Source: Abditibacterium sp.
Lineage (GTDB): Bacteria > Armatimonadota > Abditibacteriia > Abditibacteriales > Abditibacteriaceae
DNA: 64,000 nt
Direction: 5' to 3'
Assembly: GCA_965199495.1 (NCBI GenBank)
Contig: CBDASK010000003.1
Span: 1,408,001 to 1,472,000 of the forward strand
Shown here: positions 83-64,000 of the stretch, one piece after another
Numbering within the stretch: the first letter of the stretch is position 1
Layout of the letters: every line of letters starts with the position of its first letter
Made by a program: the position numbers and the translations under genes
The notes under the pieces: generated by a model
Database searches by the model: none
Told to the model about the DNA's origin: nothing
Seen by the model: only the letters and a program-made list of their open reading frames with translations

Positions 83-1684
83 TCAATTCACCCGCATCAC
101 ATGAGCCACCGGCGCGCCATTGAGCATCAACTCGCCTTCGTCGCTAACTTGATAACGCGCGTTTAACTCCGCATTGAACGCGGCGAGTTTGCCGACATCC
201 ACGATGATATGGGCCGGGCGCGGCAACGTGCCGTCGCCCAAAGCGCGCTCGATTTCGGGCAAACCATCGCCCGACGGCGTGTTGTAACTTTGGTAATTGT
301 GCGCCACGAAATTGGCGCCGACGTTATTCGTATCGGTCGTCGCCAGAAATTTGAGCGCATCGGACGGCCAGTTGGCGGCGTAGAGCGCGAATTGCGTGTC
401 GGGATGCGCGTGCAAATAGCGCCCGACGACAGTCGTTTCGGGATAAAATCCCCACGCGAACGGCTGCTTATCTATGTAAAGTTTCTTCCAGCCCGCGCCC
501 ATTTGCAGCGCGACGAGCAATGTTAAAGCCGTCGCCAAAACTGGTTTCGTCGCGGGCGATTGCCAGCGTTTTCGCGCCCAGTTTCCCAGAGCGATGAGAA
601 AGTAGCAAGCCAATAAATAAACAATTGGCAACGTTCCAATCGCGCGGTGAAAGCCCGGTTTGGTGACGACGCTCGGCAACAAAAACAGCGAAAACAAAAG
701 CAATTCCGGCCAATAATTGCGCAAACGGACGCCCGCGAAAACAATTCCCGCCGCCCATAAAATCAGCATCGGGCCTTCGAGAACCGGAAAGTTAGTGAAA
801 AAATCGTCGCCACGCGCGGAGAAATCGTAGTAACCCAGCGCGGCTTTGAGGTTATCGAATTTGCCCGCCAATCCACCACCATCGGTCATCAGCGAGGCGG
901 CGCGCCCGTTCCACTCTTGCGGATGATGAATCGCATAGTTCAGCATCGGCGCGCAGATGGTGAAAAACAAGAGGAGCGACAACGCCGCGTCAATCCAAAC
1001 GCGGCGCGCGCCGCGCATTTGTAAAAGGCGAAATAGCCAGAAAATCGGCACAAACGCCAAAATCGCGCGCCCGCCATTGTAGGTATAAAGCGTGACGCCC
1101 GCGCTTAACCCGATTTGCAGCGCCCAAAATCGCGCCCGCGCCGGTTGGTCGAAATAAAACCGGCACGATGCCGCCACCCACAGCGCGGCGGGAATTAAAG
1201 TCACCAACTGCCAGCCGACGCGGCTAAACAAAACGAACGCCGAACTCGAAATCCACAGGCATGACAGCAGAAACGCCAGCCAAGGGTTGCCGGTTTTACG
1301 TTGCATAATCCAGAAAAATAAGATCGTCGCCAGCCAGCCGAAAAAAGTCGCGGTCAGTTCGATGGTTTCTTTGGAATAGCCGAAAACTCGGAAAACTCCG
1401 GCCATAAAATAAAGGTAAGGCGTTTCGTGGCCATAGGCTTCGGGCGTGTAAATCCCCAACGATTCGCCGCCCAGAATGCGAAACGCCATCAACGCGTGCC
1501 AGCTCGCGTCGTGGTTGAGGCCGGGCGGAAACGCGCCGCCGCGCCCGTAAAAGACGAAGAGCGCGTAGGCGCAACAGGCCAACAAAAATGGCACGATTTC
1601 GAGCAAACGAGAGATGAATTTCGGTCGCGAATCAGACGCCGCGCTCGCCGTGGCTGCATCGCGCGCCGGGGAAGGAGAATTCAC
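83..1684 (-). CDS. GT-C fold membrane glycosyltransferase (ArnT/PMT-like, GT39/GT83)
   Basis: 533 aa; many TM helices, acidic first loop (NHDASWH...GHETPYLY), soluble C-terminal domain. Confidence 0.7.
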   Translation of the reverse strand: MNSPSPARDAATASAASDSRPKFISRLLEIVPFLLACCAYALFVFYGRGGAFPPGLNHDASWHALMAFRILGGESLGIYTPEAYGHETPYLYFMAGVFRVFGYSKETIELTATFFGWLATILFFWIMQRKTGNPWLAFLLSCLWISSSAFVLFSRVGWQLVTLIPAALWVAASCRFYFDQPARARFWALQIGLSAGVTLYTYNGGRAILAFVPIFWLFRLLQMRGARRVWIDAALSLLLFFTICAPMLNYAIHHPQEWNGRAASLMTDGGGLAGKFDNLKAALGYYDFSARGDDFFTNFPVLEGPMLILWAAGIVFAGVRLRNYWPELLLFSLFLLPSVVTKPGFHRAIGTLPIVYLLACYFLIALGNWARKRWQSPATKPVLATALTLLVALQMGAGWKKLYIDKQPFAWGFYPETTVVGRYLHAHPDTQFALYAANWPSDALKFLATTDTNNVGANFVAHNYQSYNTPSGDGLPEIERALGDGTLPRPAHIIVDVGKLAAFNAELNARYQVSDEGELMLNGAPVAHVMRVN

Positions 1685-1836
1685 GCGTTCAAGGTTATAA
1701 CGCGCGCTGGATGTTGGCGAATGTCGTTGCGCGTTTGTCTGCCAATCTGTTCAGCCAATTAAAATCCGCAACGATTTGAATGGTTCAGTTTCCAAGGTTT
1801 GCGCGTTAAACTGGCGCTCGCATCTTTTTCCAAACC

Positions 1837-2388
1837 ATGAAAATCTCCAACTTTTCTCTGCTCATCCCCGCCGTGGCTGTTATCGGCGCAGCCCTACTTC
1901 CCGCGCGCGCGGCGCACGCGCAGGGCGTCGGACTTTTGCCGCTTCGCGTAAAAATCGGCGCGCTGTTGCCCACGCAAAGCGAAACCAAAGATCGCGCGGG
2001 CAGCGTCATTCCCGCCGCCGAACTCGATTTGCGCATTCCGCGCTTGTTTTCGGGCGGCAATGGCAGCACTTACGCCTCGATTGGCTATCAAGATCGGGGC
2101 GGATTGCGCACCGTTCCGCTCACGCTTTCGCGCACCTTTTCGCCCAAAAACCCGCTCAAAATCGCGACCGGCAATCCCTATTTCGGTCTGGGCGCGGGCG
2201 TCTATTTCTTGCAGGGCGACAACAAAATCGGCAACTCCGAATCGAAGACGACTTTCGGCGGCTTCGCGCAAGTCGGTTACCAGTTCCCCAATCCCTATTT
2301 CATCGAGGCCAAATATCAATTGGTCGCCCAGAAAGCCGACGGCCTGAGCGCCGACGGCCTGATGTTGTTCGTCGGTCGCAAGTTTTAA
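1837..2388 (+). CDS. Outer-membrane beta-barrel protein
   Basis: Signal peptide (AHA|Q), alternating beta-strands (PYFGLGAGVY, FAQVGYQF), C-terminal F. Confidence 0.7.
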   Translation: MKISNFSLLIPAVAVIGAALLPARAAHAQGVGLLPLRVKIGALLPTQSETKDRAGSVIPAAELDLRIPRLFSGGNGSTYASIGYQDRGGLRTVPLTLSRTFSPKNPLKIATGNPYFGLGAGVYFLQGDNKIGNSESKTTFGGFAQVGYQFPNPYFIEAKYQLVAQKADGLSADGLMLFVGRKF

Positions 2389-2494
2389 GGAAAGGATAAA
2401 GGCTGAAGGATAAAGGATAAAATGACGTTATCATGCGTCATTACTTCACGCGATTTCCCCTTTATCCTTCAGCCTTTATCCTTTATCCTTTTCC
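2387..2494. repeat. Inverted pair of heptamer tandem arrays (AAGGATA)n...(TATCCTT)n
   Basis: 26-bp core AAAGGATAAAGGCTGAAGGATAAAGG present in both orientations. Confidence 0.85.
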
Positions 2495-2495
2495 C

Positions 2496-3827: not shown

Positions 3828-3840
3828 TAGGAGAATCAAA

Positions 3841-4242: not shown

Positions 4243-4293
4243 CTTCGCAGTGAAGTCCGCAGTGAACGAATAAACCGCCATTATACTTCTCCC

Positions 4294-4916: not shown

Positions 4917-4920
4917 GCCA

Positions 4921-5033: not shown

Positions 5034-5043
5034 GCTAATTTCG

Positions 5044-5988: not shown

Positions 5989-6014
5989 ACAGGAGTTACA
6001 CATTTGCGTTGCCC

Positions 6015-7387: not shown

Positions 7388-9055
7388 ATGAGATTCTTTT
7401 CCAAAAACGTGCCCATCCCCGAAGTCCCCGCCGAACCCGCAATTACTCCCGCGCCCGATGCAGCCACGGCGCCCGCGCCCGAACCCGCGCCGGTTGTCGA
7501 AGTTGACCTCGAAACCGCGATTCCCATCGAAAATGATGAGCTGGAAATCATCGAAACCGTTGCAGCTTCGCCGGAATCGGAAACGCAAATCGAGGCCGAT
7601 GTCGCGCAACTCGAACACGCGGCGCCCGAACCGCCGCGACCTTTATCGCCGGGCGCGTTTTTGGGCGGCGATTTAGAAATCATCGAAGTGATGGCGCGAG
7701 GACAAATTAATCTCTATCGCGCCGACGTTGACGAATGGGGCGCGCACGATTATCAATTGGTCGCCGAGCGTTTGGCGCCCGCGAATGTTGCCGAAAACGC
7801 GCCCGAATCGGCGCTGTTTCCCGCCGCGCGGCGTTGGACGCAGGACGAGCGCGAATACGCGGCGTGGCCTTTGGCGCACTTGACGCAATTGGCCGACTGG
7901 AATCCGCCCGCCAACGACGAGGTTTATCTGCAAACTCTGGCGGCTCTGGCCGCAGGTTTGGCCGCGCTCGAAGAGGCCGGACTTGCGCCCGATTTGCCGC
8001 GCGACGCGCTGTGGATTGACCAAAGCGGCGCCATCAAATTTTATGGATTCTTCGATCAAATCGGCGAAAACGCGCCGCCGATGAGCGCGCTCGAACAGTT
8101 ATCGGCACTTTCCAGTCGTCTGGCCAAAAGCAATCTGGCGCGCAGTGCGACGTTGAAATTGGACGACGAATTTAGCGCGTTGCCTTTGTCGGACGAAACC
8201 AAAACTTTCGCCAAACGCCTGGCGGCGGGCGAATGGGAAACCATCGGCGAGGCGGCGGAGTGGCTGCAAATCGCGCCGGTTCATAGCAGCGAGATCGCGT
8301 TGTTGTCCGATGTCGGCTTGTTGCGCGAACTCAACGAAGATTGCGGATTGACTTTGCGCCTCAGTCGCGCCGGGCACGCCACGCATTTCGAGATCGAGGT
8401 CGTCGCCGTGGCTGATGGCATGGGCGGGCACGAAGGCGGCGAAGTCGCCTCGGAACTGGCGCTGACGACGTTGCAAAATCAGTTACTCCAACTCGATTTG
8501 GATTGGAACGACAACGCGGTTTTGATGCAATCGGTCGCGCAGATTTGTGAAAACGTCAACGCCGCCGTCGTCGCGATGAACGAAAATCCGCCTTACGCCG
8601 CGATGCGCAACAAGCCGGGCGCGACGTTGGTTTGGGCGTTGCGTTTGGGCAGTCGCGTTTTCATCGGCAACGTCGGCGATTCTCGCGCCTATCGCTGGAG
8701 CGCGCGCGAAGGTTTGCAACGATTGACGACCGACCATTCGTATGTGCAGGATTTGATTGACAGCGGCAGACTGCGCGAGGAAGAATCGTGGGGCCATCCC
8801 GACGGATCGGTGATTACTTCGCACATCGGCATGGCGCGCGGCATGCAACGCGATGTTTTTCTGCATTTGGTGCGGCCCGGCGACAAACTATTTTTGGTTT
8901 CGGATGGCGTCGTGGATATGCTGCGCGACGAAACCATCGCCGAAATCGCCGCCGAACAGGCCGACCCGCGCGCGCTGTGTGGCGCTCTGGTCGAAGCCGC
9001 CAATGACGCGGGTGGCGCGGATAATATTACCGTGGCGGCGCTGTTTTGCGTTTGA
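7388..9055 (+). CDS. PP2C-family Ser/Thr phosphatase with an N-terminal degenerate kinase-like domain
   Basis: RELNED, VADGMGGH, NVGDSRAY, TTDHS, LVSDGV, GGADNIT. Confidence 0.92.
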   Translation: MRFFSKNVPIPEVPAEPAITPAPDAATAPAPEPAPVVEVDLETAIPIENDELEIIETVAASPESETQIEADVAQLEHAAPEPPRPLSPGAFLGGDLEIIEVMARGQINLYRADVDEWGAHDYQLVAERLAPANVAENAPESALFPAARRWTQDEREYAAWPLAHLTQLADWNPPANDEVYLQTLAALAAGLAALEEAGLAPDLPRDALWIDQSGAIKFYGFFDQIGENAPPMSALEQLSALSSRLAKSNLARSATLKLDDEFSALPLSDETKTFAKRLAAGEWETIGEAAEWLQIAPVHSSEIALLSDVGLLRELNEDCGLTLRLSRAGHATHFEIEVVAVADGMGGHEGGEVASELALTTLQNQLLQLDLDWNDNAVLMQSVAQICENVNAAVVAMNENPPYAAMRNKPGATLVWALRLGSRVFIGNVGDSRAYRWSAREGLQRLTTDHSYVQDLIDSGRLREEESWGHPDGSVITSHIGMARGMQRDVFLHLVRPGDKLFLVSDGVVDMLRDETIAEIAAEQADPRALCGALVEAANDAGGADNITVAALFCV

Positions 9056-11541: not shown

Positions 11542-12654
11542 ATGAAATTGTTCCGTCTGCTGGCACTTTCTGTGGCATTGCTCGCTCCGTGCGCCCACGC
11601 GCAAAACCCACCCGAAACGTTGCGCGAAGCCGCGCCCAAAGGTTTGCTCGTCGGCGGCGCCATCGCGACGCAGGATTTGGACAAACCCGAACTCGCGAAT
11701 TTGGCCGCACGACAGTTCAGTGCGATTACGCCCGAATACGAAATGATGCCCGAAAAGTTAGTGGACGACAACGGCAAATTCGATTTTGCGACCGCCGACC
11801 GCGTCGTGGATTTCGCCAAAAAAAATCATCAAAGCGTTTTCGGGCATATGCTGGTTTGGCACTTCGTCACGCGCCGGTGGCTCTTTGAAAGTCCCGATGG
11901 CAAACCGTTGCCGCGCGACAAAGCGTTAGCAAATCTGGAGCTTTATATTTCGACGGTCGTCGGCCATTATAAAGGCCGCGTCAAAGCGTGGGATGTCGTC
12001 AACGAAGGCATCAGCGACGCCGATGGCGAATATCTCAAAGATACGCTAGCATTGCGCGCAATTGGGCCGGATTACATCCAAAAAGCCTTCGAGTTCGCGC
12101 ACGCCGCCGACCCAAACGCCGAGTTGTATTACAACGATTACAACATCGAACAGCCGGGCAAATTGGAAAAAACGATTAAATTGGTGCGCTCGCTACAAGA
12201 CGCGGGCGTACGCTTGGACGCCGTCGGCATTCAGGGCCACTGGCTCATCAATTGGCCGCCGACCGAGATGATCGAAAACGGCATCGAAGCCTTAGCAAAA
12301 ACCGGCGTCAAAGTGATGATTACCGAGTTGGATGTGGACGTTTTACCGCGCGATGTGAGCGGCGCCGACATGGCGCAAACCGAAACCGGCGCCAATCCGT
12401 ATAAAGACGGATTGCCCGCCGCGATGCAACAAAAATTGGCCAATCGTTACAGCGAAATCATGACGGCGATTTTGCGTCATCCCTCCGTCACGTTCATCGG
12501 TTTCTGGGGCACGCACGATGGCCGCTCGTGGCTCAACGATTTCCCGGTCAAAGGCCGCACCAATTATCCGCTTTTGTTCGACCGCAGGTTGCAACCCAAA
12601 CCCGCGTTCGACGCCGTGATTAAAGCGTTGAATTCCGCGCCAAAAACTGATTGA
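11542..12654 (+). CDS. Endo-1,4-beta-xylanase, GH10
   Basis: Signal peptide; GHMLVWH, WDVVNE, YNDYN, GIQGH, ITELDV. Confidence 0.95.
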   Translation: MKLFRLLALSVALLAPCAHAQNPPETLREAAPKGLLVGGAIATQDLDKPELANLAARQFSAITPEYEMMPEKLVDDNGKFDFATADRVVDFAKKNHQSVFGHMLVWHFVTRRWLFESPDGKPLPRDKALANLELYISTVVGHYKGRVKAWDVVNEGISDADGEYLKDTLALRAIGPDYIQKAFEFAHAADPNAELYYNDYNIEQPGKLEKTIKLVRSLQDAGVRLDAVGIQGHWLINWPPTEMIENGIEALAKTGVKVMITELDVDVLPRDVSGADMAQTETGANPYKDGLPAAMQQKLANRYSEIMTAILRHPSVTFIGFWGTHDGRSWLNDFPVKGRTNYPLLFDRRLQPKPAFDAVIKALNSAPKTD

Positions 12655-12694
12655 TTTCCGTCAACGCCTCACGCGCGCCCAAATCAATCGCAAT
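12620..12694 (-). pseudogene. Displaced original 3' end of the sirtuin gene
   Basis: Reads IAIDLGAREALTEINQFLARNSTL*, homologous to ISITLGARDASD*IDQIV at the current sirtuin end. Confidence 0.8.
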
Positions 12695-13390
12695 TTAGGC
12701 GGCGACTAATTCTTTAGCCCGTTGCTTTCGAGTTGTCGTGCCACTATCCCACATTCGATCAAATTTGGGGCGTTGCTTATAATGAGCCGTATTCTGAGTC
12801 CAACGGAGAGAAGAATACCCTGCCATCAAACGATGGCCTACCCATCGAGTATCAACAAAATTGGGGGCACCAGGAATGTTAAGAAGCAAGATGCGCCCCA
12901 TGAAACGTGTCCATTGCCTTTGTGTCAGCAAAGTCAAACCGTAAAAATGAAAAGAACGTCCTGAATTAAAAATTTCGAATTTATCGCAACCAAAATCACT
13001 GGAGAGTTCGACCAAACGGTTAATGTCCTGATCGTTGATGTCCGATCCAAAATCGATCATTGGAATGTGGTAAAGTCGTTGAGTCCAGCCACGCCGCACC
13101 CACACCCTCGAATGAAAAGCGATTTCCTGATCGTGGCCGAGCGAAGACTGCTCGATTTGAAAACGCGAAATTAAATCTTGAGCGTTGATTCTGAATGTGC
13201 GGCGCTCATCTTCAATCGTTTGAGGCCTATACGAGTAAACGCTCAATTCGAGTTTTTCAATCTCGGAATGACGACGACAAAATTTTTCCAACAAAAGAGC
13301 CGGATGATCGGGCTCTTGAGCGGGAGGCGAAACATCTTTGGAGCGCGCCCACAAAAGCTGGGGCAAGGCGAAATTCTGTGAGCGTAGCAT
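12695..13390 (-). CDS. Archaeo-eukaryotic primase (AEP)-like protein, possibly 'primase 1D-like'
   Basis: HIPMIDF (motif I-like), FNSGRSFHFYG (motif II), FVDTRW (motif III-like); AT-rich. Confidence 0.6.
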   Translation of the reverse strand: MLRSQNFALPQLLWARSKDVSPPAQEPDHPALLLEKFCRRHSEIEKLELSVYSYRPQTIEDERRTFRINAQDLISRFQIEQSSLGHDQEIAFHSRVWVRRGWTQRLYHIPMIDFGSDINDQDINRLVELSSDFGCDKFEIFNSGRSFHFYGLTLLTQRQWTRFMGRILLLNIPGAPNFVDTRWVGHRLMAGYSSLRWTQNTAHYKQRPKFDRMWDSGTTTRKQRAKELVAA

Positions 13391-13429
13391 AGTGCAGAGA
13401 TAGCAACTTTTTGTCCTAAATCTCGGTTT

Positions 13430-14935
13430 CTATGTGGTAATGCCTTTGAGCATATTGAAGGTCTTGACGGCGTGACTGTCTGTCATGCCAGAAACGTAAT
13501 CGACGATGAGATGGGCACGCAAAACTGGCTCCAAATTCGCCGACTCATGCTTTGCTTCGAAATAAGCGTGCAACTGTTTGTTAGACAGCAGAGAATAGAG
13601 TCGTTTCTCCAAATGAAACTTACTGTTTGAAGGCAAGTTCGCGAATTCTTCACTTCTAAGGCGCAGTAAAGGAGAGAAGCCATCTAAAATGCCCTGCACG
13701 ATATGGTATCCGCTGAGTTCAACGTTCATCGCTTCTTTGGACGTAAAGATGTATTTTTTGGCGAACGCTCGCAGAAAATTCAAGATTTTCTCTCTTTCCA
13801 AGTCAAGCAATGTCCGTTGAAATTCTCCAGCCAAAATAGCCGCGTGATTTTCCAAATAGACCTTAGTGGCTCTCTTCACCAGCGCATTGGTCACAGCTAC
13901 TTTGAAACTCACAAAAAGAGCATTGGGTGAACGAATCTCTTCACTGCCATTTTGATACGAAAAAATTGTGGGAGTTTTGCTGCCCCTTTCTGGGCGCGTT
14001 TGGTAACTGCGACACCACTTTTGATAGTCTATAATGCCGTCCAAAAATTTGCTCATTCCCAGAGATTCACACACTCGTTTAACTTCACCAATAGTTCCTA
14101 ACAACTCACCTTCTAATACTTCATAAACGAAAACTTTTTCGGTGATAATCTGCTTTTCCAACGCATCTTCGATGTCGCTCGAACAATATGCGATATCATC
14201 AGCGGCTTCCATCAGAAAAACCAGGGGATGACGTTAAGCTGGCAAGCCACCAGAATTTGTTTTCAGTCCCAGTTGCTTCCATGTTTCTCTAATTATTTCG
14301 TGTTCTGTATGGAAAAACCCCGCTTTTTTGCCGAATGGGGCACCTTCATTCTTGCGCGGCCCCAAATATTTCAAGAGTGCGGCAATTAGCGTATAGGTTG
14401 GGTTCAGGCCAAATTCGTTGTCGAGCCACTGCAAACGAGTGATGATGCGTAAAACTTGGGGATTGCCATCGAAATGCTCGAAGGCCCAAAAATGGGCTTC
14501 GGCATCAGCGATACCGTCCCAAGCGGACTCGATTTCCTGGCGACGTTGCGAAAACCAATCGCCGATAGCGGCTTCGCCCAAATGACCAAACGGCGGATTC
14601 CCAACATCATGCAATAAACACGCGTTTTGCACCGTCAAATAAAAAGGCAAGCGCAAACTTTCTGCGATGAGGTTTCCAGAGAGCAATGCATCGAAAGTAT
14701 ATGTCGCTATGAGTTCTCCAATGAAGGCCACCTCCATCGTATGGGTCAACCGAGAACGCACAGCGGCATTTTGTTCAAGTGAAAAAACTTGGGCTTTAGT
14801 CTGGAGACGCCGGAACGGAGCGGAAGTGATGATACGGCCTTTGTCACTCAACATTTCAGTAGTTAAATCGCGTCCCTCTTGCCGTGTTTTCTTACGCCTT
14901 TCGTGAGTTATTAAATGGTTATAATCATTTGACAT
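13430..14935 (-). pseudogene. dGTP triphosphohydrolase (long HD-domain type) interrupted by an in-frame TAA
   Basis: FRRLQTKAQVF, RSRLTHTMEV, LHDVGNPPFGH, FDGNPQ, then GGLPA*RHPLVFLMEAADDIAY, DYVSGMTD; both ORFs share one frame. Confidence 0.9.
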
Positions 14936-14966
14936 AGAATTTTTGAGCAGAAACAATTTGATCGAT

Positions 14967-15761
14967 TTAATCTGATGCGTCACGCGCGCCAAGTGTAATA
15001 GAAATTGTGCCGCGCGGCCCCTGACTTTCGCGCACGTTGATTCTCACGAGAGTCGCGCCCGCGCGTTGCAGACGTTCGCCGAAATCGCGCACCGTCGGAA
15101 TCGCCGTGCCCGCCCCACATTCGATGATCGTCAATTTCGTTTTGTCAATTTCGCTGAGCCAACGCGTTAGCGATTGTTCTTCTTTCAAACTGCGGCCCAA
15201 AATCCACGCGCCGTCCCAAAACATCAAAATATTGGGCCGCAATAACTCGCCGCAATTGGGGCAACGCGGCAAATCACCAACGGCACGAAACGTTTGCGCA
15301 TCCACTTCGATATTTGTGTTGGCCGCGCTCCAAATCGTATCGCTGCACGGCACGACGCATTGCAAATGATGAATCGAACCGTGAACTTCGCAGACGTTTT
15401 CGATGCCCGCTTTCCTAAATTGTCCGTCCACGTTCGAGGTATAAACGCGCGCCGGTTTTTCGTCGGCCCACTTTTTCAGAATCGCGAAACCCTTATGCGG
15501 CGCGGTTTGGCGATACAAATTTAAGCGGTGGCCGTAGAAACCCCACGCCAATTCGGGATCGCGTTCAAACCACGATGGATTGGCCATCTCCGCGAAACCG
15601 ATGCCCAATTGTGCGAGCGGCGGATAAGCGCGCCAGAAGCCTTCATTGCCCCTGAAATCGGGCAAACCCGAATCAACTCCCATTCCGGCGCCTGCCGTGA
15701 ATAGCAAAAATTCGGCGTTCGAGATGGCACGCGCGGCGGCTTCAATTGAAGAATTGATCAT
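14967..15761 (-). CDS. Sir2-family NAD-dependent deacylase
   Basis: AGAGMGVDSGLPDFRG, TSNVDG, EVHGS, CPNC, RPNILMF. Confidence 0.92.
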   Translation of the reverse strand: MINSSIEAAARAISNAEFLLFTAGAGMGVDSGLPDFRGNEGFWRAYPPLAQLGIGFAEMANPSWFERDPELAWGFYGHRLNLYRQTAPHKGFAILKKWADEKPARVYTSNVDGQFRKAGIENVCEVHGSIHHLQCVVPCSDTIWSAANTNIEVDAQTFRAVGDLPRCPNCGELLRPNILMFWDGAWILGRSLKEEQSLTRWLSEIDKTKLTIIECGAGTAIPTVRDFGERLQRAGATLVRINVRESQGPRGTISITLGARDASD

Positions 15762-15762
15762 A

Positions 15763-16221
15763 TTAAAATTTGAGTTTGCCATCATAATCTAAAATGCCCA
15801 CTTCAAACATTTTATTGAAATTATCCGCAGCGAAACGCTTTTCCAAATGTGGAATATAAATTTCGAGCAGTTCTTCGGGCGTGTGACAGAAGCGACCGTT
15901 CAAATCGTGAAATATCGTATTGGGAATCCAACTTAAAACTGCATAAGCCAAATGCGCCACACACAACAGATCAGGCGCACCTCGCGTGCTGTCAGTCGCA
16001 ATCGTCCAGTGGGCGCTCTGGCCCAACAAATGTTTTTGGCGAAACGGATATAAAGAACACCAGACTGCTGCGCCTTTTTCGCGCACCATCCATTCCGCTA
16101 AACAAGGAATAGAAGACGAATGTGGCTCACGAGATTCCGCATCGAAGAGCGTCAATATCTCTTCCCATTGGGCGAACGGAAACTCAGCTTCCGCGAAGTA
16201 AATGGCCGTGTTCGTGCTCAT
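15763..16221 (-). CDS. Hypothetical protein
   Basis: 152-aa ORF from ATG 16221 filling the gap between co-oriented genes. Confidence 0.55.
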   Translation of the reverse strand: MSTNTAIYFAEAEFPFAQWEEILTLFDAESREPHSSSIPCLAEWMVREKGAAVWCSLYPFRQKHLLGQSAHWTIATDSTRGAPDLLCVAHLAYAVLSWIPNTIFHDLNGRFCHTPEELLEIYIPHLEKRFAADNFNKMFEVGILDYDGKLKF

Positions 16222-16244
16222 TGTAAAATATAAATTTGAAGAGA

Positions 16245-21770: not shown

Positions 21771-22508
21771 TTAAGCTGGCAACAAGCGCAACACGACTTT
21801 GCCAAACGCGACTTTATCGCCCAATTTCAGCGGCGACGGCTGGTTATCTGGAATTGGTTTATTGTTGATGCGCGTTTTGTTGGCGCCGCCCAGATGCGTA
21901 ACGCTCACGTTGCCGTTATCGAAATTGACGCGCGCGTGCTGGCGATGAACGTAACCGGCATCTTGGTCGGATAAATCAATGTCGGGATAAATATCGGCGT
22001 CTTCATCTTCGCGCCCGACGAGCATTTCGGCGTCGCCCAGCACGAACTGCGCGCCGACCGATTGGCCCTGCTCGACGACCAATTTCACGTTGCCCGGCAT
22101 CAAATCGCCAGCCGTTTGTGATGCAGTGCCAACAGGAGCCACGGCGCCCGTGGAGACGGGCGCGACCAAACCAGCGGTTGCGGTGCTGGCGGCGGGCGCA
22201 TCGCCAATTGACGTTTCGTCGGCGGGCATATCAAACGAGGTGATCGGATCGGCCTGGTTCATCGTATCCATCGGCTCGTCTTCGGGCGAAACTGCGGGAG
22301 CAATCACGGTCGCGGCGCCGGGATGCAAGTCGGCGCCGCAGGCTTCGCAGGCGAGGTTATCGGCGGGATTTTCGGCGCCACAATCGGGGCACTTAATCAT
22401 CGCTTCGGTCGCCGTGGCTGCATTGGCCGAGGGCAACTCTTCGCCACAGTTTTCGCAAAATTGGGTGCCATCCACGTTTTCGTGCTGGCATTCGGGACAG
22501 GTAATCAT
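21771..22508 (-). CDS. Double zinc-ribbon + FHA domain protein
   Basis: CPEC..CENC, CPDC..CEAC; VGRED...PDIDL...VHRQHA...NKTRIN. Confidence 0.9.
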   Translation of the reverse strand: MITCPECQHENVDGTQFCENCGEELPSANAATATEAMIKCPDCGAENPADNLACEACGADLHPGAATVIAPAVSPEDEPMDTMNQADPITSFDMPADETSIGDAPAASTATAGLVAPVSTGAVAPVGTASQTAGDLMPGNVKLVVEQGQSVGAQFVLGDAEMLVGREDEDADIYPDIDLSDQDAGYVHRQHARVNFDNGNVSVTHLGGANKTRINNKPIPDNQPSPLKLGDKVAFGKVVLRLLPA

Positions 22509-30559: not shown

Positions 30560-30687
30560 CGGGCGCCGTGGCTTCCGTAGAGACGCCGATTTATCGCGTC
30601 TAAAACGTAACACTTGCCTTTTCATTAAAACAAGCTCAACTTTTTAGACGCGATAAATCGGCGTCTCTACGGAAGCCACGGCGCCCG
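30560..30687. repeat. Perfect 46-bp-arm palindrome: REP-like core inside an inverted GCCGTGGCT pair
   Basis: 30560-30605 is the reverse complement of 30642-30687. Confidence 0.9.
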
Positions 30688-48091: not shown

Positions 48092-48207
48092 AATGTTTTT
48101 CCTGTTGTGGAGACGGTTAGTTTAATCTTTAACGCAGCCACGTCGGCGCCGTGGCTGCGATGTCGCTCTAAAGATTTTGGCAGAATTGTCGAAAACAGCC
48201 GTATTTT

Positions 48208-49149
48208 ATGAAATGGATTCGAGATCACTGGCGCTGGGCGCTCAAAGGCGTGGTGCTGGCGGGCCTTTTAATCGCGGGCGCCAAATATCTGAGCGGCGGC
48301 CAATTCTGGAACGCCATCGGTCATTTTCGCTGGATTTATGCGCTACCGATTACAGCTTTGACGCTACTTTATGTGATGATTCGCGGCGCTCGCTTTGGCG
48401 TGCCGCTGCATTATCTCGCCGGATTAAACCGCCTGACGGCGGGCGTGGCTTCGGCGTCGGGTGAGGGCGCCGCACTGATGCCCGGCGGCGTGATGACTTA
48501 TCTCGCGATGCTCAAAGAAGTCGGTGTCAAAGTCGGGCGTAGCGGCGCCACGGTCGCTTGGGTCAGCGTTTTAGATCAAGGATTATTCGTTTCGCTTTCC
48601 CTCATTGCCTCGCTGTGGCTGCCCGCCGCACGCCGGGGCGCCTTCGCGGTTTTGACAATGTTAATCCTCTTCGGTGTATCGCTGGCGATTCCCATGACGC
48701 GCCTGTGGCTGAGCGTCGCGTGGGAAAGTTTGCTGCTCAAAATCGGCGCGTTGGTTTCGTGGCGCGACGGCTTGAGCGCGATGCGCGATTTGCTCAACGC
48801 GCGCGTGATGGGCGAGGGATTATTGCTCACGCTGGGCGCGGCGTTGGCGATGGCGGGCGCGCTCAATCTGGCGGTTTCGGGATTGGGCGCCGACATCACG
48901 TTTGCCTCGGCTTTGCTCGCCTACACGCTCTCTTCGATGCTGGGCCGCCTGACGCCTTTGCCGGGCGGCGTTGGTGTGACCGAAGCGGCCCTCGTGGGCG
49001 TATTGCACCAAGTCGGCGGCCTCAATTTGGAGCAGGCCGCAGCAGCCACGGCGATCTTTCGCGTCGGCACGACGCTGTTTAGCGCAGTCGTCGGCACGAC
49101 GGTTTATGCGCTGTGGTGGAATCGGCGCGTGGCGCACGAAGCGAGTTAA
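48208..49149 (+). CDS. Lysylphosphatidylglycerol synthase TM / flippase-like protein (UPF0104)
   Basis: Multi-TM; PLPGGVGVTEA, AIFR. Confidence 0.8.
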   Translation: MKWIRDHWRWALKGVVLAGLLIAGAKYLSGGQFWNAIGHFRWIYALPITALTLLYVMIRGARFGVPLHYLAGLNRLTAGVASASGEGAALMPGGVMTYLAMLKEVGVKVGRSGATVAWVSVLDQGLFVSLSLIASLWLPAARRGAFAVLTMLILFGVSLAIPMTRLWLSVAWESLLLKIGALVSWRDGLSAMRDLLNARVMGEGLLLTLGAALAMAGALNLAVSGLGADITFASALLAYTLSSMLGRLTPLPGGVGVTEAALVGVLHQVGGLNLEQAAAATAIFRVGTTLFSAVVGTTVYALWWNRRVAHEAS

Positions 49150-51338: not shown

Positions 51339-51486
51339 ATTATTTTCCTGAAATTAGCCGTTTGTGCGTTCGCCGTTCCGTTCGCCGTGGCTGCATTCGT
51401 TGGGCGGATTAAACGTTATAAACGGTTTGCCTCAACGCCGATAAAAAGACGATTTCGTAGCTGAAAAACTCGCGCCTTTAGCTTTC

Positions 51487-51725: not shown

Positions 51726-54700
51726 TTGATGTTTTCGACGAAACATCAAGACAAAACGCTCGGCGATTTCGTTAAAGCCCGCCGTTTTCCCGCCGTGATT
51801 ACCGGCGCGCACATTCGCGAGTTACGCGAAAATCCCGATTCCGACGAAACGCTCGATTTCGTCGGCGGCTATTTAGGTTTCGACGCCCGTTCGCATCACG
51901 CCCTCGAAGCGTTATTGACGAGTTTGAGCGGCGACAAAGGCGGCGCGTTCTGGCTCAACGGCGTTTACGGCGCAGGCAAAAGCCACTTGCTGGGCGCCGT
52001 GGCTCTATTGTGCGATGGCGCCGCGCACGAAGTTTTCGGCGCGCTTTATCCGGCGTTCGCGCCGTTGTTAAAACGGTTCGCGCCGCGTCTGGTGATTTCG
52101 ATTGCGTTGGACGATTACAGTGCGCGCACCTTCGATTTGGAAGGAATTTTCTGGCGCGAACTCGATACGCAAGCCGCGCGGCAAAACCTGAATTTGCCCG
52201 CGCGCAAAGCCGATGAATCGCGCGCGGAAAACTTCGCGCAATTGGAAAACGCGTTGCGCGAAAACGGTTTGAGCGGCCTCGTCATTTGCATAGACGAAGT
52301 TTCGCTGTTTTTGGGCGGGCGCGAGCGCGAGGGCTTGCAAAGCGACGCGGCGTTTTTGCAGTTTTTGGGGCAACATTCGCGGCGTTCGGCGCTGTGGATC
52401 GTCGGCGCCATCCAAAAAACAGTCGAAGACATCGGCGATTTGGAAACCTATTCGTTGAGTCAAATTCGTGACCGCTTCACCACGTTGCCGCTTTCGCTGG
52501 CGCATTTGCCGGCCCTCGTCGAGGCGCGCTTGCGCGTGATTTCTGATGCGCAAGCCGTTGACGAATTGTGCGCGCAAACTTTCGCCGCGCAGAGCGAAGC
52601 GTTGCCGCGTTTGGATTTCGGGCCGCAGGAATGGCGCGCGCTGTTCCCATTTCATCCCTCTGCGATTGATTTACTCGAAAAGGTGACCAGCCGATTTTTC
52701 TCGCGCACACGCAGTGCGGCGTTGTTTTGCGTTCACGCGTTGGATAAGTGCGGCGATGAGGCAGCCACGGCGCGCGTGGGGCCGGAACGAATTTGGGATT
52801 ATTTCGTGCCCGAACTCGAATCGCACCCCGATTTGCGCGCGCTGGGCGAAGTCTGGGAAAGCTGGGAGCCGCTCGCCGCTTCGATTGCGCCTTCGGACTC
52901 GGACGATATGCGGAGAACGATGAAATTTTTGTTGGTCAGCAAAATCGCCGGACAAAACCCGACGCCGCTTCACGTCGCCAACGCATTGGGATTCGATGTC
53001 GGATTGGGCGGCGACGGCAACCTTGATTACGCGCGACAGTTATTAGAAAAATTGCGCCGCAACGCGCCGTTTGTCGCGCTCGAACGTGGCGACGAGGCCT
53101 TGGGCGACCGTTACGCGATTGATCTGGGCAAGCGCGTCGGCGAATTGGCGCGGCGCCAAATCGCCCAATCCGCCGAAGGTTTGAGTGTGGGCGACGCACG
53201 TTTGATGGCGCAGGCGCTACGCGCCGCTGGGGCCGAGCCGATGCCGCTATCGCAATTGAGCGGTGGCAATATCGCGACGATGTGGGCCAACTCGCCGCGC
53301 GCGATTGCGGTTGATGTCGAAAGCGGCGCGAGTGCTGCGACTTTGGCCAATCGCATCTTGTCCACGCGCGAAGCGGGCGCGTTGGCCAGCGCGTTTTTAT
53401 TGATTTTGCCGCCGTTTTCTTTAGATGAATGGGACAGATTTGGCGTGATAAATCTACTCGAAGACCCGCGCGACCGCGCCGCGTTTTGGATGTGGAAGCC
53501 GCGCCCACCCGCGCGAGACGAATGGGAATTGTGCCGCGAAAGCGAGGCGGCGCGTTTAGCGGCGTCCGATCCGGCACTGGCCGACAACCGGCGCGGACGA
53601 GCGATCACAGAACATCTCGAAAAAGGTGCGTCCGCCCGCGACGCGCAACTTGCGCGCGTGGTGACGCGACTTTATTTGGAAGGCGAATTGGTGTTGGGAA
53701 CCGGCGTGGCTCTGGAAGCCGCCGAACTGGCGCGCGGCGAAACCTTCGCGGCGCTGTTGGAAAGCGTTGCCGACTTCGCTTTGCCGCAACTGTTTCCGCG
53801 CTGGCCCGAAATCGCGCCGCGCGCGCGACTTCTCACGCCATCCAACGCCGACGCTTTGTGTCTCGAAATTCTGCGGCGCCCGACGAGCGAACCGTTTTTC
53901 GCGCCCTCGCTCGAACGCTTGGCGCGTCACGTCGCGATGCCGCTCGGATTGGCGACTTCGAGCGCCGGGCGCTGGAAAATCGCGCCCGGTTTAGACGCGT
54001 GGCGCGAGCCGTTTATCCAAAGCGTCGGCGGCGGCGCGACATTGAGCGCGCTCGAAGCGATGTGGGCGAAAAACGAATGGGGCTGGCCCGCCGAAACGTT
54101 CGCGCTCGCGGTTTGCGCGTTGCTACGCGACGGCGAATTGAGCGCACTCGATGCGCGCGGCCAAGTTTTGTCGCCCGCGCAAATCGGTTTGCCTTTGCGC
54201 CGCAGCGTCCATTCGCTCAAACCGGGCGAGTTGCCCGACAACCAAATGTGGACGCGCGCGGCGAGTTTCGCCCACGTCGTTTTGCGCGAAAAAGTCGGCG
54301 CGCCGTCGTTCGAGGCGACGCAGCAATTGGCCGCGCGTATCGCGAATTGGCAAAGCGAAACCACGCGCGAACTCGAATTGGCGCGCGCCCGCGCCGCGCA
54401 GTGTCGCCGCCAATTGAATCACGATTCGCAAAGCTGGCCCCATTTTGAAGCGGCCTCGAATACGATTGGCGAGGCGTTGCAATCCTTGCCGCGTGATGGC
54501 GCGCCCGACGCGCTGATAGCAGCCACGGCGAACGTGGACGGCGAAGCCTTAGCGCGCGCGTTGCGCGAATTGGAAGTGACGGGCGCGCTTTTGGAAACGC
54601 GTTTGCCGACGCTTTTATCCACGCACGCGATGTTGGGTGACGGACAAAATGCGGCGCCATCACAGCTTTCGCAAAGTCGCGGCGAACTGCGTGCGCGTTT

Positions 54701-57952: not shown

Positions 57953-59047
57953 TTAAGGGCGCGTTGCCATCTTTCCATCCACGCACCACACGCCGAAAAT
58001 CCCGTTAATCTTCGTGCTGGAAAGCGCACTCACAGTTTGCGAATCTTTGCTCCACAACGAATTCCACAGTTGGTTCGATGATTCAAGCGCCGCGAACGGA
58101 AACGAAATATCGGCGAAGTCGCGCGCATTTTCGTCGCCCGTCCAAACCGCCATGTGCGAGTGGTTCATATCGCCGTCGGGCGCCAGTTGCGCCGATAAAA
58201 GCGTGGTGCCGTCGCTCATTTGGCACAAATAAGGCGCGCCCGCGTAAGCAGCCACGGCGAGCGGCTCTTTGAGCGCGCCCCAACGATTGGGACTGGCGCC
58301 ATCAATATATCCATTGGTTTGCGGCGCGATGATCACCGGCTTGAAAGTGCCGCTCAAGCCGTTATCTTCGATGGCCATCACGATTTTTCCGTTGCGCAAA
58401 ACCAGCGAAACCGGCATTCCGTCGCGCGCTTGGGCACGAAAAGTGACGGTTTGTGGCACGCTCCAATTGTGGCCGTTATCGCGTGAAATCAAACGCGTTA
58501 TTTGCTGCTCGTTAGTCGTGGAATAAGGCGCTTCGTTGGCGAAGTAAAGTTGAATCGAACCGTCGGGCGCATTAATCGCGCGCGGTTCCCAGCAACCGTT
58601 CTCGAATGTCGTGCCCGCGCGATAAACCGCGACGGGCGCGCTCCACGTCAGGCCCGCGTCGGTGCTGCGACACGTCGCAATCGTGAACGGCAAACCGGTG
58701 TCGCGGCGCGGGCGCCCATTGAAACTGCACAGCCAATCGCCGCCAGGCACAATCAACAGTTCGGGATTGGCGGCGTGATAATTTGCTAAATCGGCGACAT
58801 TGATTTCGTCGCCCCACGTTACGCCATTGTTGCTGCTGCGTTTTACGCGAATGCCACCGCCATGTTCGTAAATGCACGCGACGTTGCGCGCGTCAACGCG
58901 CGCAACGCGGGCGTAATTGCCGCCGCTTTGAATCAATTGCAAAGTTTGGTTTTGCCATTGAATCGGCGCGGCCACAGCAAGCAGAGAATACCAAGGCGTC
59001 ATCAGACAAATGAATATCCAGATTTTGGCATGGCGCGAGAAGTTCAC
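57953..59047 (-). CDS. Secreted BNR/Asp-box beta-propeller (sialidase-like)
   Basis: SSNNGVTW, STDAGLTWS, SRDNGHNWS. Confidence 0.85.
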   Translation of the reverse strand: MNFSRHAKIWIFICLMTPWYSLLAVAAPIQWQNQTLQLIQSGGNYARVARVDARNVACIYEHGGGIRVKRSSNNGVTWGDEINVADLANYHAANPELLIVPGGDWLCSFNGRPRRDTGLPFTIATCRSTDAGLTWSAPVAVYRAGTTFENGCWEPRAINAPDGSIQLYFANEAPYSTTNEQQITRLISRDNGHNWSVPQTVTFRAQARDGMPVSLVLRNGKIVMAIEDNGLSGTFKPVIIAPQTNGYIDGASPNRWGALKEPLAVAAYAGAPYLCQMSDGTTLLSAQLAPDGDMNHSHMAVWTGDENARDFADISFPFAALESSNQLWNSLWSKDSQTVSALSSTKINGIFGVWCVDGKMATRP

Positions 59048-59189: not shown

Positions 59190-61421
59190 GTGCCCGTTTC
59201 TTCCGTTTCCGATTCTCCTTCCACCCATCCGCTCTCGGCCTCCGACGACCGCCAACTGACCAAAATTTTGGGCACGGACGGTTTCATGGCGAACATGATG
59301 GCGGCGCAGAAACGGCACTTCGAGGCGCGACCCGAACAATTGGAAATGGCCAAAGCGATTTTTGCCGCCGCGCGCGAGAAAAATCATTTGTTGGTCGAAG
59401 CCGGAACCGGAACCGGCAAATCTTACGCGTATCTGGTGCCGCTGATTTTGTGGGCCGTCGAAACCAAAAAACGCGTAATGATAGCCACCGGCACCAAGGC
59501 ACTGCAACAACAGTTGGTCGAGCGCGATTTGCCGTTTTTGCACGAACTGTTCAAGTCGCACATGGGCACCGACATCAAGTTCGCTTTATGTCTGGGAACC
59601 GGCAATTATGTGTGCCCGCGCCGATTAGCAAAAACCGAATCGCTGGGTTTGTTTGGCGACAGTAAAGAGGTCGAACAATTACAGCAGTTGCATCGTTTTT
59701 CGGCATCGTCGCCGACGGGCCGCAACGTGGATTTGGACTTTGAGCCTGCCCGTGGCTTGTGGGCGCAGGTCAATCGCGAATCGGATTTGTGTCTGGCGCG
59801 CAACTGCCCGCATTTCGAGCAATCGTTCTATTGGAAGGCGCGGCGCGAACAGGAAAAAGCGCAGATTTTGGTCGCCAATCATCATTTGCTGTTCGCCCAT
59901 ATCGCGGCGGGCGGCAACGCGGGCGGCGTTTTGCCCGCCTTTGACGCGCTCGTGATTGACGAAGCGCATCACGCCGAAGATGTCGCGGCGAGTTATTTGG
60001 GTTTGGAAATCTCGAACCTGAGCGCGGCGAAATTAATCGAATTATTGTCAAATCGTAAATCGGGCAAAACCGTGATTAGCGCGACCAAATGGCCGCAGCG
60101 TGGCGAACTCGAAAGCCGCTTGAACGAAGCCGCGACCGAAGCGCGCGAAGCCGTCGGCAGGTTTTTCGAGAATTTGCAACGCGCGATGAACTTTCACGAA
60201 GGCCGTAGCCAGACGATTCGCATTACGCGGCCCGGCATTATCGCCGACGAACTGGACGAGCCGATTCTGAAAATTGAAACCATTATCGGCACGGCGTTGC
60301 GGCTGGCAGTTTTGAGCGAGGACGAAGAATTATCGCGCGAGTTGGAAGGCTACGCCAATCGTTGCGCTGAAATGCGCCGCACCGTGCGCGATATTCTGGG
60401 CCAAACGCGCGACGGCTACGTTTATTGGACGCAAAGCGTGCCGCGTCTGCCCGATGGATTTGGCAAAGCCGAACGCGTGCCGAGATTAAGTTTGCACGGC
60501 GCGCCAATTGAAGTCGCACAATCCATGCGCGAATCGGTGTGGAAGCAGTTCAAACCGACGATTTTGACTTCGGCGACTTTGACGACCGGCGGCAGTTTCG
60601 ACTTTTTGGTCGAACGCTTGGGCCTGAGCGTGCCGCCAATTATCGCGGACGCGGCGGAAGATAAAAACGCGAAACTGACGAAAACGTCCGCCGCCAAAGC
60701 CAAGGCGCCCGATGCAGCCACGGCAACCGACTCCGAGGCGCCCGAAGAGTTCGACGTGCGCACATTGACGCTGGGCAGTCCGTTCGATTACGGGAAAAAC
60801 GCGCTGATTTACGTCGCGGCGGATTTGCCCGATCCTTCGACGAACGTTTCGTTTTGGGAAGAAGCCGCGATTAAACGCGCGGCGGAAATCATCAAGCGCA
60901 CCGACGGCAAAGCATTTATTTTATGCACCAGTTATCGTTTGGTTGACCAGACCGCGCGCTTTTTGGAGCGCGTGATGCCCGCACGCATCCGCATTTTGCG
61001 GCAGGGAGAAATGGCGCGCGGCAAATTATTGAGCGAATTTCGCAAAGACACCCATTCGGTTTTGGTCGGCACCACGAGTTTCTGGCAGGGCGTTGACGTG
61101 CCGGGCGAAAGCCTGTCGTGCGTGATTATCATGAAACTGCCGTTCGCCGTGCCCGACGAGCCGATGGTGCAGGCGCGCGTCGAAACCATCAAAGAGCGCG
61201 GTCAAGACGCCTTCGTCGGCTACCAAGTGCCGCAAGCCGTGATGATGTTTCGTCAGGGTTTTGGCCGTTTAATCCGCACCGCGACCGACCGTGGCATCGT
61301 GGCGATTATGGATCCGCGCGTCAAGACCAAACCCTATGGCCGCACGTTTTTAGAGTCATTGCCCGACTGTAATCGGACGGAAGAATTGGATCGCGTCAGT
61401 TTGTTCGTAACGGGCATTTAA
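59190..61421 (+). CDS. dinG: DinG/YoaA family ATP-dependent helicase
   Basis: EAGTGTGKS, DEAH, TSATL, FWQGVD, KLPF, QGFGRLIR. Confidence 0.93.
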   Translation: MPVSSVSDSPSTHPLSASDDRQLTKILGTDGFMANMMAAQKRHFEARPEQLEMAKAIFAAAREKNHLLVEAGTGTGKSYAYLVPLILWAVETKKRVMIATGTKALQQQLVERDLPFLHELFKSHMGTDIKFALCLGTGNYVCPRRLAKTESLGLFGDSKEVEQLQQLHRFSASSPTGRNVDLDFEPARGLWAQVNRESDLCLARNCPHFEQSFYWKARREQEKAQILVANHHLLFAHIAAGGNAGGVLPAFDALVIDEAHHAEDVAASYLGLEISNLSAAKLIELLSNRKSGKTVISATKWPQRGELESRLNEAATEAREAVGRFFENLQRAMNFHEGRSQTIRITRPGIIADELDEPILKIETIIGTALRLAVLSEDEELSRELEGYANRCAEMRRTVRDILGQTRDGYVYWTQSVPRLPDGFGKAERVPRLSLHGAPIEVAQSMRESVWKQFKPTILTSATLTTGGSFDFLVERLGLSVPPIIADAAEDKNAKLTKTSAAKAKAPDAATATDSEAPEEFDVRTLTLGSPFDYGKNALIYVAADLPDPSTNVSFWEEAAIKRAAEIIKRTDGKAFILCTSYRLVDQTARFLERVMPARIRILRQGEMARGKLLSEFRKDTHSVLVGTTSFWQGVDVPGESLSCVIIMKLPFAVPDEPMVQARVETIKERGQDAFVGYQVPQAVMMFRQGFGRLIRTATDRGIVAIMDPRVKTKPYGRTFLESLPDCNRTEELDRVSLFVTGI

Positions 61422-61497
61422 GGGAGCGGAAAAAGGAGTTGACTTCGTCAACGAAAAAGAGTTATAATTGCAAAGCGTTAGTCATTGGAGCAACTCT

Positions 61498-62538: not shown

Positions 62539-62550
62539 GCGAGGCCGTTC

Positions 62551-62611
62551 TATCGCGTCTAAAAATGTCGGATACGCTTTGTTGTATTCGACATTTTGAC
62601 GCGATAAATCG
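62551..62611. repeat. Degenerate copy of the TTTATCGCGTCT palindrome family
   Basis: TATCGCGTCTAAAAATGTCG...CGACATTTTGACGCGATA. Confidence 0.65.
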
Positions 62612-64000
62612 TCATTTCTCCGACAAACTCACGCGCCGCGAATACTTTCCTGCGCTGACCTCGAACGTTTCACCGTTTGGCAAAGTCACCTGTGCGCGCG
62701 TGTTGGCAGGCACGACAAAATCCCAGAGGAACTCGCCGTCTTCGGTGCGCCACGCGCTTTCGATGCGGCCAAAAAGCGAGTCGTAGTGCGCCGTGGCTGA
62801 TGTCAGGCCAGCGCCGGGTTGCGGTTGCAACTTAAAACTTTGGTAACCATCTTTGCCGGGCGCGATGCCAGCGACGACCTGCGCCAGCCAATCGCCGACG
62901 GCGCCGTAGGCGTAGTGATTGAACGAGTTCATGCCCGCATCCTGAAAACCGTTCTTTTGCGTCCAACCGTCCCAGCGTTCCCAAATCGTGGTCGCGCCCT
63001 GCGTGACGGCATACAAAAAACTCGGCCAATCGTGTTGCAGCAACAGTTCGTAGGCGGTCGAGTTCGCGCCGTTTTCGCTCAGGACGAACGGCAGATAACT
63101 GGTGCCGACGAAACCCGTCGAAAGTTTGCCGCCGCGATGCGCGATTTCTGCAACTAATTCGTTCGTCGCATCGGCGCGCAAATTTTCGGGCAATAAATTA
63201 AAGTGCAACGCCAAAACGTAGGGCGTTTGGTAAGGCGGCGACAACCGTCCGGCGGGCGTGACGAAACGTTCGCAGAAAGTTTTGGCGACGCTCTCGAACA
63301 GTTCGCGATAACGCGTTTGGTCGTCGGTGCGGCCCAAAACGCCCGCGATGCGGCTCATCAAATCGGCGTCGTGCGCGTAAAACGCCGTGCCAATGAGTTC
63401 TTTGGGCGTGCCTCCCATCGTTTGGCCGCTGCCGTCGAGCGCCAGCCAATCGCCGAAACCTTCCCAGTAATCCGCGCCTTTGGCGCAACGCACATTGTCG
63501 CGCGCGGTGTTTTGCAGATAATTGAAATAACGCTCGAAAACCGAGTAATTATCGCGTAAAATGCGCGTGTCCCCATAACGCTGGTAGAGCGTCCACGGAC
63601 AAATCAAAACGGCGTCGGCCCACGCCGGGCCGCCATCATGCCACGGGCCGAGCTGGCCGCCCTGCTCGCCGACAACGGCATCGCGCGCGCCGGGCAAGGG
63701 CACCACGCAGGGAACCGAACCGTCGGCGTGCTGCGCATCAGCCACGTCGCGTGCCCACTTCGTCCAGAACGCCGGAACATCGCGCAAAAAGCATGAAGTC
63801 CCCGCGAAAACCTGCGCGTCGCCCGTCCAGCCCAACCGCTCGTCGCGCTGCGGACAATCAGTGGGCACATCGAGTGAATTGCCGCGCCAGCCCCAATCGA
63901 TATTTTTTTGAAGCTGATTGACCAACGGATCGCTACACCTGAAATCGCCGGTTTGCGGCGCGTCGCTGTGCAAAACAACGCCGGTCAAAAAATCGTCGTC
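62612..64000 (-). CDS. Alpha-L-rhamnosidase GH78 (5'-truncated by the window edge)
   Basis: PTDCPQRDERLGWTGD, FGDWL, GATTIWERW, MNSFNHYAYG. Confidence 0.93.
   Translation of the reverse strand, partial: DDDFLTGVVLHSDAPQTGDFRCSDPLVNQLQKNIDWGWRGNSLDVPTDCPQRDERLGWTGDAQVFAGTSCFLRDVPAFWTKWARDVADAQHADGSVPCVVPLPGARDAVVGEQGGQLGPWHDGGPAWADAVLICPWTLYQRYGDTRILRDNYSVFERYFNYLQNTARDNVRCAKGADYWEGFGDWLALDGSGQTMGGTPKELIGTAFYAHDADLMSRIAGVLGRTDDQTRYRELFESVAKTFCERFVTPAGRLSPPYQTPYVLALHFNLLPENLRADATNELVAEIAHRGGKLSTGFVGTSYLPFVLSENGANSTAYELLLQHDWPSFLYAVTQGATTIWERWDGWTQKNGFQDAGMNSFNHYAYGAVGDWLAQVVAGIAPGKDGYQSFKLQPQPGAGLTSATAHYDSLFGRIESAWRTEDGEFLWDFVVPANTRAQVTLPNGETFEVSAGKYSRRVSLSEK

Follow-up and report, generated by a model that had tools for sequence, protein, structure and literature searches.

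What could drive one short word into genes and intergenic sequence alike, on both strands, dozens of times within 64,000 nucleotides of an Abditibacterium chromosome? The stretch in question (the window) is C3:1,408,001-1,472,000 of a 4.81-Mb genome in three contigs, C1-C3, here called G000. Named homologues of one window protein come from Armatimonadetes, Abditibacterium and Abditibacteriaceae, with 55-57% identity, and it is from these that the lineage was inferred. A first-pass annotation had described an over-represented 11-mer with the core CGTGGCT, balanced between strands, and proposed a DNA-uptake-like or other lineage-specific signal. All ten 11-mers that it listed are present (4 on the plus and 6 on the minus strand by direct count), and the core, put there at about 65-70 copies, occurs 69 times (32 plus, 37 minus). 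The excess is well beyond composition, as had been claimed: first-order Markov resamples of the window (n=100) contain a mean of 7.6 cores (maximum 14) and 0.06 11-mers, where about 12 and 0.1 had been expected. We therefore examined the whole of G000, in which a hexamer model built for this analysis called 3,896 genes, together with relatives from sets of 13 genus, 27 family and 151 phylum genomes, numbered from G000 onward.

The 11-mer exists, but it is part of a wider word, CGNCGTGGCTG(C), with the full consensus CGNCGTGGCTG(C)(W) and CGTGGCT as its strict core; the consensus CGNCGTGGCTG is not a palindrome. G000 contains 2,180 copies of CGNCGTGGCTG (1,073 plus, 1,107 minus), about one every 2 kb or 453 per Mb overall, and only 18 + 15 copies of the reversed pattern. 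GTGGCT is the hexamer with the highest over-representation in the genome. Variants with one change in the inner six positions occur at 0.2-2.0 times expectation, the outer positions tolerate change, and the flanks are unrelated between copies. Coding sequence holds 1,999 copies, compared to 58.9 (sd 8.6) in 10 synonymous shuffles, so that the enrichment survives a codon-preserving null at 34-fold. Nor is it confined to one frame: the six frames hold 914, 24, 147, 242, 31 and 641 copies, versus 14.7, 3.0, 15.8, 17.2, 1.2 and 7.0 in the shuffles, an 8- to 90-fold excess in each. A bias toward certain codons or linker peptides (AVAA, DVAA, AATA) could be read from the two frames that hold 1,555 of the 1,999 coding copies, but it is refuted by the excess of every frame over the synonymous-shuffle null. 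With 172 intergenic copies, conserved silent positions and close relatives that lack the word also against it, we give this explanation next to no weight.

Conservation acts on the DNA rather than the protein. In 122 kb aligned between G000 and G011 (84.5% identity), 135 of 149 codons with silent core bases were kept where 101 were expected, and the amino acids at sites showed no extra conservation (102 of 118 versus 102). The comparison with G004 gave no excess of silent-core conservation (62 of 107 versus 64 expected), indicating that sites turn over. The word is thus selected at the DNA level genome-wide, with both the 15- to 300-fold over-representation and the silent-site conservation used to recognize words of the highly iterated palindrome (HIP) type. 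By the features tested, this real genome-wide signal is not a DNA uptake sequence (DUS), Chi or HIP1, and it is apparently undescribed. In the library searched, whole-word motif searches found no paper on CGNCGTGGCTG, and nothing turned up on strand-specific spacing or on such words in the Abditibacteri lineage; the words of relatives matched only unrelated papers, and supplementary word-survey tables could hold such motifs.

The placement of the word is unlike that of sites tied to replication or segregation. Copies are even on both strands in every 100-kb bin, intergenic geometry has no effect (323-390 per Mb), and 1,104 of 2,179 copies are on the leading strand, bearing out the expectation that the word would lack replichore polarity. 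FtsK orienting polar sequences (KOPS) are polarised in the same test (296 of 380), in which a dnaA-like gene found by pattern marks the origin. The replichore polarity or regional confinement of KOPS, architecture imparting sequences (AIMS), matS and SlmA-type sites is therefore not found here. As a separate observation, GC skew in G000 is almost nil, yet KOPS-like words are polarised. The predicted depletion in islands was also observed: four islands carry 96-259 copies per Mb versus 453 overall, and the small contigs are nearly empty (C1, 0 copies versus 11 expected; C2, 1 versus 29).

Copies on the same strand keep apart from one another. Only 85 of 449 pairs separated by 40-600 bp in G000 are on the same strand (p 4e-42), and over this range same-strand pairs of GNCGTGGCTG reach 0.10-0.33 of expectation, with recovery by 1.5 kb, whereas opposite-strand pairs reach 0.82-1.11. 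Within single genes there are 43 same-strand versus 245 opposite-strand pairs. Fits place the range of the effect at 0.9 kb (Gaussian) or 1.47 kb (linear). Among 2,079 frequent 7-mers, the six with the strongest same-strand repulsion are all pieces of the motif. The pattern was replicated in G011, where the first 100 listed sites gave 2 same-strand and 13 opposite-strand pairs (p 0.007), and the first 100 forward sites of G004 show a deficit, with 7 same-strand pairs versus 13.8 expected. We find no surplus of decayed one-off sites near same-strand sites, and unshared sites are not compensated by nearby sites (p 0.63 and 0.07). One copy makes a second same-strand copy redundant or unwelcome within about 1-1.5 kb, and opposite-strand copies are nearly independent, a spacing that suggests a polar word.

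Close pairs that are missing when direct and not when inverted could also be left by a site-specific recombination or nicking target, with close direct copies purged via deletion between them. However, same-strand avoidance tracks how strong the sites are (0.92 to 0.17) and does not depend on how long a repeat they share, clustering is seen for 11,187 other frequent 10-mers (ratio 1.71), and deletion does not explain the gain of thousands of sites, making this a very improbable source of the pattern.

The spacing bears directly on the uptake proposal. In a classical DNA uptake sequence, as in Neisseria, a surface pilin binds the duplex word either way and uptake bias spreads it. DUS and the uptake signal sequence (USS; PMC3630211, PMC1939737) share with our word a non-palindromic 10-11-mer at about one per 2 kb, coding and intergenic copies, absence of replichore bias, a sharp core, lineage dialects, some inverted pairs and a competent host gene set. 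Density, use of all six frames, island depletion, a complete set of competence genes and the hairpins formed by intergenic copies in places (14 convergent pairs) favor the analogy, and the phased flanks described below could help kinking at the pore. The analogy is weakened by orientation, although a strand-specific uptake system would still fit. In a control of 1,095 DUS from 50 non-overlapping loci of 80, chosen around inverted pairs, spacing at 100-600 bp was orientation-blind (same strand 0.53-0.78, opposite strand 0.68-0.79), and unpaired DUS were likewise without a strand effect. When a duplex word is bound regardless of orientation, a new site should bring no advantage near an existing one on either strand, as with DUS; that only a same-strand neighbour has this effect here suggests that a site licenses one strand or one direction. 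Inverted pairs are also few (50 pairs <40 bp apart among 2,526 sites), and several relatives use palindromes.

The competence genes do not decide the matter. G000 has intact comEC, comEA, dprA, comM, recA and pilus genes; competence genes were what the first-pass annotation had suggested looking for. Across the family, ComEC is present in 27 of 27 genomes, ComEA in 25 of 27 and DprA in 25 of 27 regardless of motif status, such that competence and recombination genes do not separate motif from motif-less genomes. None of 12 pilin-like genes found by pattern, nor any of four in the pilus operon, is tied to the motif, and no ComP-like receptor was identified among the genes searched. ComEC was considered as the reader and set aside: its branches are long not only in G014 and G017 but in lineages without a motif as well, with no domain-specific signal. 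Altogether we regard classical uptake as rather unlikely.

A second property of the sites is helical phasing. Silent positions near sites alternate between AT-rich and GC-rich with a period of 11.1-11.5 bp and a larger amplitude 5′ of the site (0.066) than 3′ of it (0.035), traceable to about 110-160 bp; six control words give at most 0.015. The phasing grows from 0.02 to 0.19 with site strength and is also seen around the sites of G011, G014 and G020; unpaired DUS have a weaker periodic signal with another period. Good sites are rotationally phased on bent duplex DNA. An 11.2-bp signal is present genome-wide in G000 and strong in the clade, and since it is equally strong near and far from sites, the sites ride on the signal rather than make it. 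Phased sites on a genome-wide signal suggest that the reader recognizes its site in duplex DNA presented at a fixed rotational setting. On the 3′ side of the motif, a G>C skew was lost in a within-gene control (4.6, bootstrap -1.4 to 11.2, null 3.3).

Signals of 11 bp are commonly tied to negative supercoiling (PMC4132750), and gyrase sites have periodic flanks of 10.75 bp (PMC6379681). One alternative is a role in chromosome architecture or topology: on bent and supercoiled DNA, the word would be bound by a protein that puts a directional machine (an SMC-type extruder, a topoisomerase or a nucleoid protein) onto the DNA, stalls it or anchors it, and selection would keep about one site per 3.5 kb on each strand. 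The rise of phasing with site strength, the genome-wide signal and the proposal that HIP1 is architectural (PMC5861425) favor such a role. We consider it unlikely on balance, because the 11-bp signal is not made by the sites, the period is equally strong in motif-less G023, ten congeners lack any such word, and neither replichore nor intergenic geometry matters.

The word is in excess in 3 of 13 genus genomes, G000, G011 (1,838 copies) and G004 (739), which form one clade in a quick ComEC tree; no other of the 151 phylum genomes searched has an excess. The dialect of G004 is shifted, being mostly GACGTGGCTG, and equally dense (2,735 copies of GNCGTGGCTG). Of the 26 family genomes besides G000, we sampled 25 (all but G021) over 12-100 kb and saw different dense words in seven, G014, G017, G018, G020, G022, G024 and G042, and no dense word in the samples of the remaining 15. 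The words of relatives are TGCAAGTACTTGCA, CAAAGTACTTTG, WTCGAGTACTCGAW, CGAGTACTCG and the non-palindromic TTCGACCGTACY (L071-L078, L083-L090, L119-L124, L128-L130). Those of G014, G018, G020, G022, G024 and G042 are palindromes, evenly spaced with a coefficient of variation of 0.55-0.69, and AGTACT has 2,813-4,733 copies in six genomes versus 1-285 in the other 21. That these palindromes are hairpins was rejected, their outer arms co-varying little in G020 and G022 and somewhat in G014. In G001 a repeat-like word resembling TTCCACAAAAAATGAAG (59 copies in 51 kb, L095-L098) often lies in inverted pairs about 30 bp apart, without strand-specific spacing. G000 itself strongly avoids GTAC and CTAG (observed/expected 0.10 and 0.03), and many palindromic hexamers are avoided too.

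HIP1 and the alternate HIPs (PMC4390886, PMC5861425, PMC13756078) are likewise hyper-abundant, override codon choice and are replaced in some lineages, and relatives of G000 carry true palindromes; unlike HIP1, our word is not palindromic, belongs to another phylum and has no methyltransferase shown to be linked to it. Following Elhai's HIP model, an asymmetric methyltransferase site could direct mismatch repair or a mutational ratchet. Each daughter duplex would use one orientation, giving strand-specific saturation at repair-tract length and hence polarity without replichore bias, and the outer positions tolerate mismatches as in HIP1 (PMC4390886). MutL also seems altered: in 7 of 7 family sequences seen (G000 C3:84585-86483 and loci L517-L520, L428 and L091), the first D of the endonuclease motif DQHA is N or C, and D462N abolishes nicking by B. 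subtilis MutL (PMC2965676). However, the change is shared by motif-less G003, G009 and G012, and at distances of 12 to 1,500 bp from a site, silent divergence from G011 stays level (0.24-0.28). A partial look saw no methyltransferase confined to motif genomes, among listed enzymes whose specificity is not assignable. We therefore consider a methylation-linked signal decidedly unlikely.

Our preferred but tentative explanation, to which we give a probability of roughly 0.4, is that the word is a polar signal for recombination in the manner of Chi, or for self DNA. Biased recombination would have spread it in lineages without AddAB, and a lineage-specific protein would read it, so that it works like Chi and accumulates like an uptake sequence. 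Foreign DNA lacks the word, and AddAB was not found in genomes that carry it. An AddA match is present in 10 of 10 motif-less genus genomes versus 0 of 10 motif-bearing family genomes, the AddA/AddB-like pair scoring below NCBIfam cut-offs, and a UvrD_C family search agreed for all 4 of the motif-bearing genomes to which it was applied. In G000, the purA and GDSL-like genes that neighbour addAB in G001 and G008 are still adjacent; G013 has a weak match and G015 another AddAB. Three comM 3′ remnants and one intact comM surround a motif-poor island of G000 (C3:1,120,000-1,256,000), and the position of the remnants there also favors a self signal. Elsewhere, comM of G020 is split by about 29 kb (C1:2,145,624-2,176,085), and G012 has many comM remnants.

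During transformation or the repair of breaks, the reader would bind its site in duplex DNA and license a single strand or direction, through a stop to resection, a nick or RecA loading. Such licensing might come from a scanning or resecting enzyme that acts at the first site it meets in the right orientation, from nicking of only one strand or from shielding of a single strand as it enters. DNA carrying a site would then have an advantage in survival and recombination over the same DNA lacking it, except where a same-strand site lay close by already. Such biased recombination would fix new sites, making them abundant at the expense of codon choice and regularly spaced along each strand, and would mark self DNA. 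The palindromic words of relatives would serve both strands at one place.

Chi (GCTGGTGG, AGCGG; RecBCD/AddAB, PMC5101192) is also asymmetric, polar-like, enriched in the core genome and poor in foreign DNA; here there is no AddAB or RecBCD found, no leading-strand skew and far higher enrichment. HIP1 has been reported to act in part 'reminiscent of' Chi (10.1101/2024.09.10.611283), and we juxtapose here that HIP1-poor picocyanobacteria have recBCD and that HIP1-rich model strains are without recB, recC or recD. The clade has a Dna2-like nuclease-helicase where others have AddAB; for resection it is no more than a candidate. The G000 protein (C3:4111365-4115630) has an N-terminal PD-(D/E)XK domain, four invariant cysteines and a superfamily 1B helicase, with DNA2 as its best PDB match; 21 close homologues at 64-89% identity are followed by a gap to about 43%. 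The domain architecture is like that of Geobacillus Bad and eukaryotic DNA2 (PMC7430649), which are not known to have sequence-specific regulation. The gene is found in 5 of 27 family genomes (G000, G004, G011, G017 and G016). In G011 it lacks its N-terminal half and is frameshifted, and transition variants there stand at 16% versus 12% of perfect sites, at most a hint of site decay. A metagenome scan for Dna2-like loci returned mostly distant helicases, and the 3 of 77 long loci looked at had no dense word.

Several observations weigh against a Chi-like recombination signal. No reader was found in the genes considered. AddA is also not found in G016, G019, G021, G023 and G041, all without a detected word, G001 combines AddAB with its dense repeated word of another kind, and the correlation between AddAB and the motif rests on about three lineage events, with several family genomes incomplete and kin not independent. 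The distribution of the Dna2-like gene does not match all motif genomes: the six palindrome genomes lack it, motif-less G016 has it and the G011 copy is broken. E. coli Chi has no 1-kb same-strand spacing of this kind (8 pairs versus 10.6 among the first 100 of 499 forward sites), and unequal pairs of our word show no 5′/3′ asymmetry (295 versus 314). Small locus samples lean the other way in G004 (8 same, 2 opposite) and G017 (3 and 0), and a small G011 sample, scored with the weaker motif pattern, gave 13 against 17. Finally, the 11-bp phasing fits an intracellular architectural role equally well.

The window itself illustrates these features, with cores dispersed over 1647..63746 on both strands, in genes of both orientations and between genes (56 of the 69 are GNCGTGGCT). 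Plus-strand 11-mers lie upstream of a gene start (1647..1657), antisense in a zinc-ribbon/FHA gene (22411..22421) and in intergenic sequence (51384..51394). Those on the minus strand are antisense in genes for a PP2C phosphatase (7460..7470), a lysylphosphatidylglycerol synthase-like protein (49042..49052), a DUF6079/BrxC-like ATPase (52761..52771 and 54519..54529) and a YoaA/DinG-like helicase (60714..60724), and sense in a BNR-repeat gene (58248..58258). The peptides DAATA at 7460 and AVAA at 58248 are as the first-pass annotation had described for the two orientations. Of the two intergenic inverted pairs that it reported, one is an abutting pair with 13-nt arms 1 nt apart (48133..48159), but the cores at 30565 and 30674 are in the arms of a 49-nt inverted repeat that resembles a repetitive extragenic palindrome (REP; 30560..30687). 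The low-GC island (12600..16240, 47.5% GC) with primase-like, split dGTPase and Sir2 genes serves as a negative control, its single core, at 13087, agreeing with the earlier count.

REP-like inverted repeats that embed the motif are also seen in G004 (L031-L035), and words related to such repeats, GTAGAGAC and GGTGTCTCTA, have 160-290 copies in G000. The word as such is not a REP or miniature inverted repeat: 1,999 of about 2,180 copies are coding, flanks are unrelated and only a minority lie in REP-like arms. In the island, the dGTPase homologue is split over two adjacent open reading frames, N- and C-terminal halves (13430-14992), beside the Sir2 and primase-like genes. The 1,215-residue protein at 51726-55373 resembles DUF6079/BrxC weakly and in its N-terminal part only, with no bacteriophage exclusion (BREX) neighbours seen in the window.

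The broader suggestion of a lineage-specific, protein-read signal holds, as none of the three refuting outcomes named in the first-pass annotation was observed. A more general proposal, which we put forward as a fairly unlikely possibility, is that AddAB-less Abditibacteriaceae have an undescribed self-tagging recombination system whose reader, of evolvable specificity, recognizes a 10-14 bp word on bent duplex DNA. The reader would license one strand over about 1-1.5 kb and drive the word into the proteome, the palindromic dialects would belong to the same system, and HIP1 would have arrived independently at the same logic, standing in for Chi where RecBCD/AddAB is missing, with its polarity hidden by symmetry. 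In the uptake-sequence papers cited here, such words come from two families. Orientation, hidden in palindromes, can be measured in a hyper-abundant word that is not one, and here the measurement points to a polar reader that reaches about 1-1.5 kb. Since one family comprises several words, sister lineages without a motif and a clear exchange of resection genes, comparative genomics should be able to find the reader.

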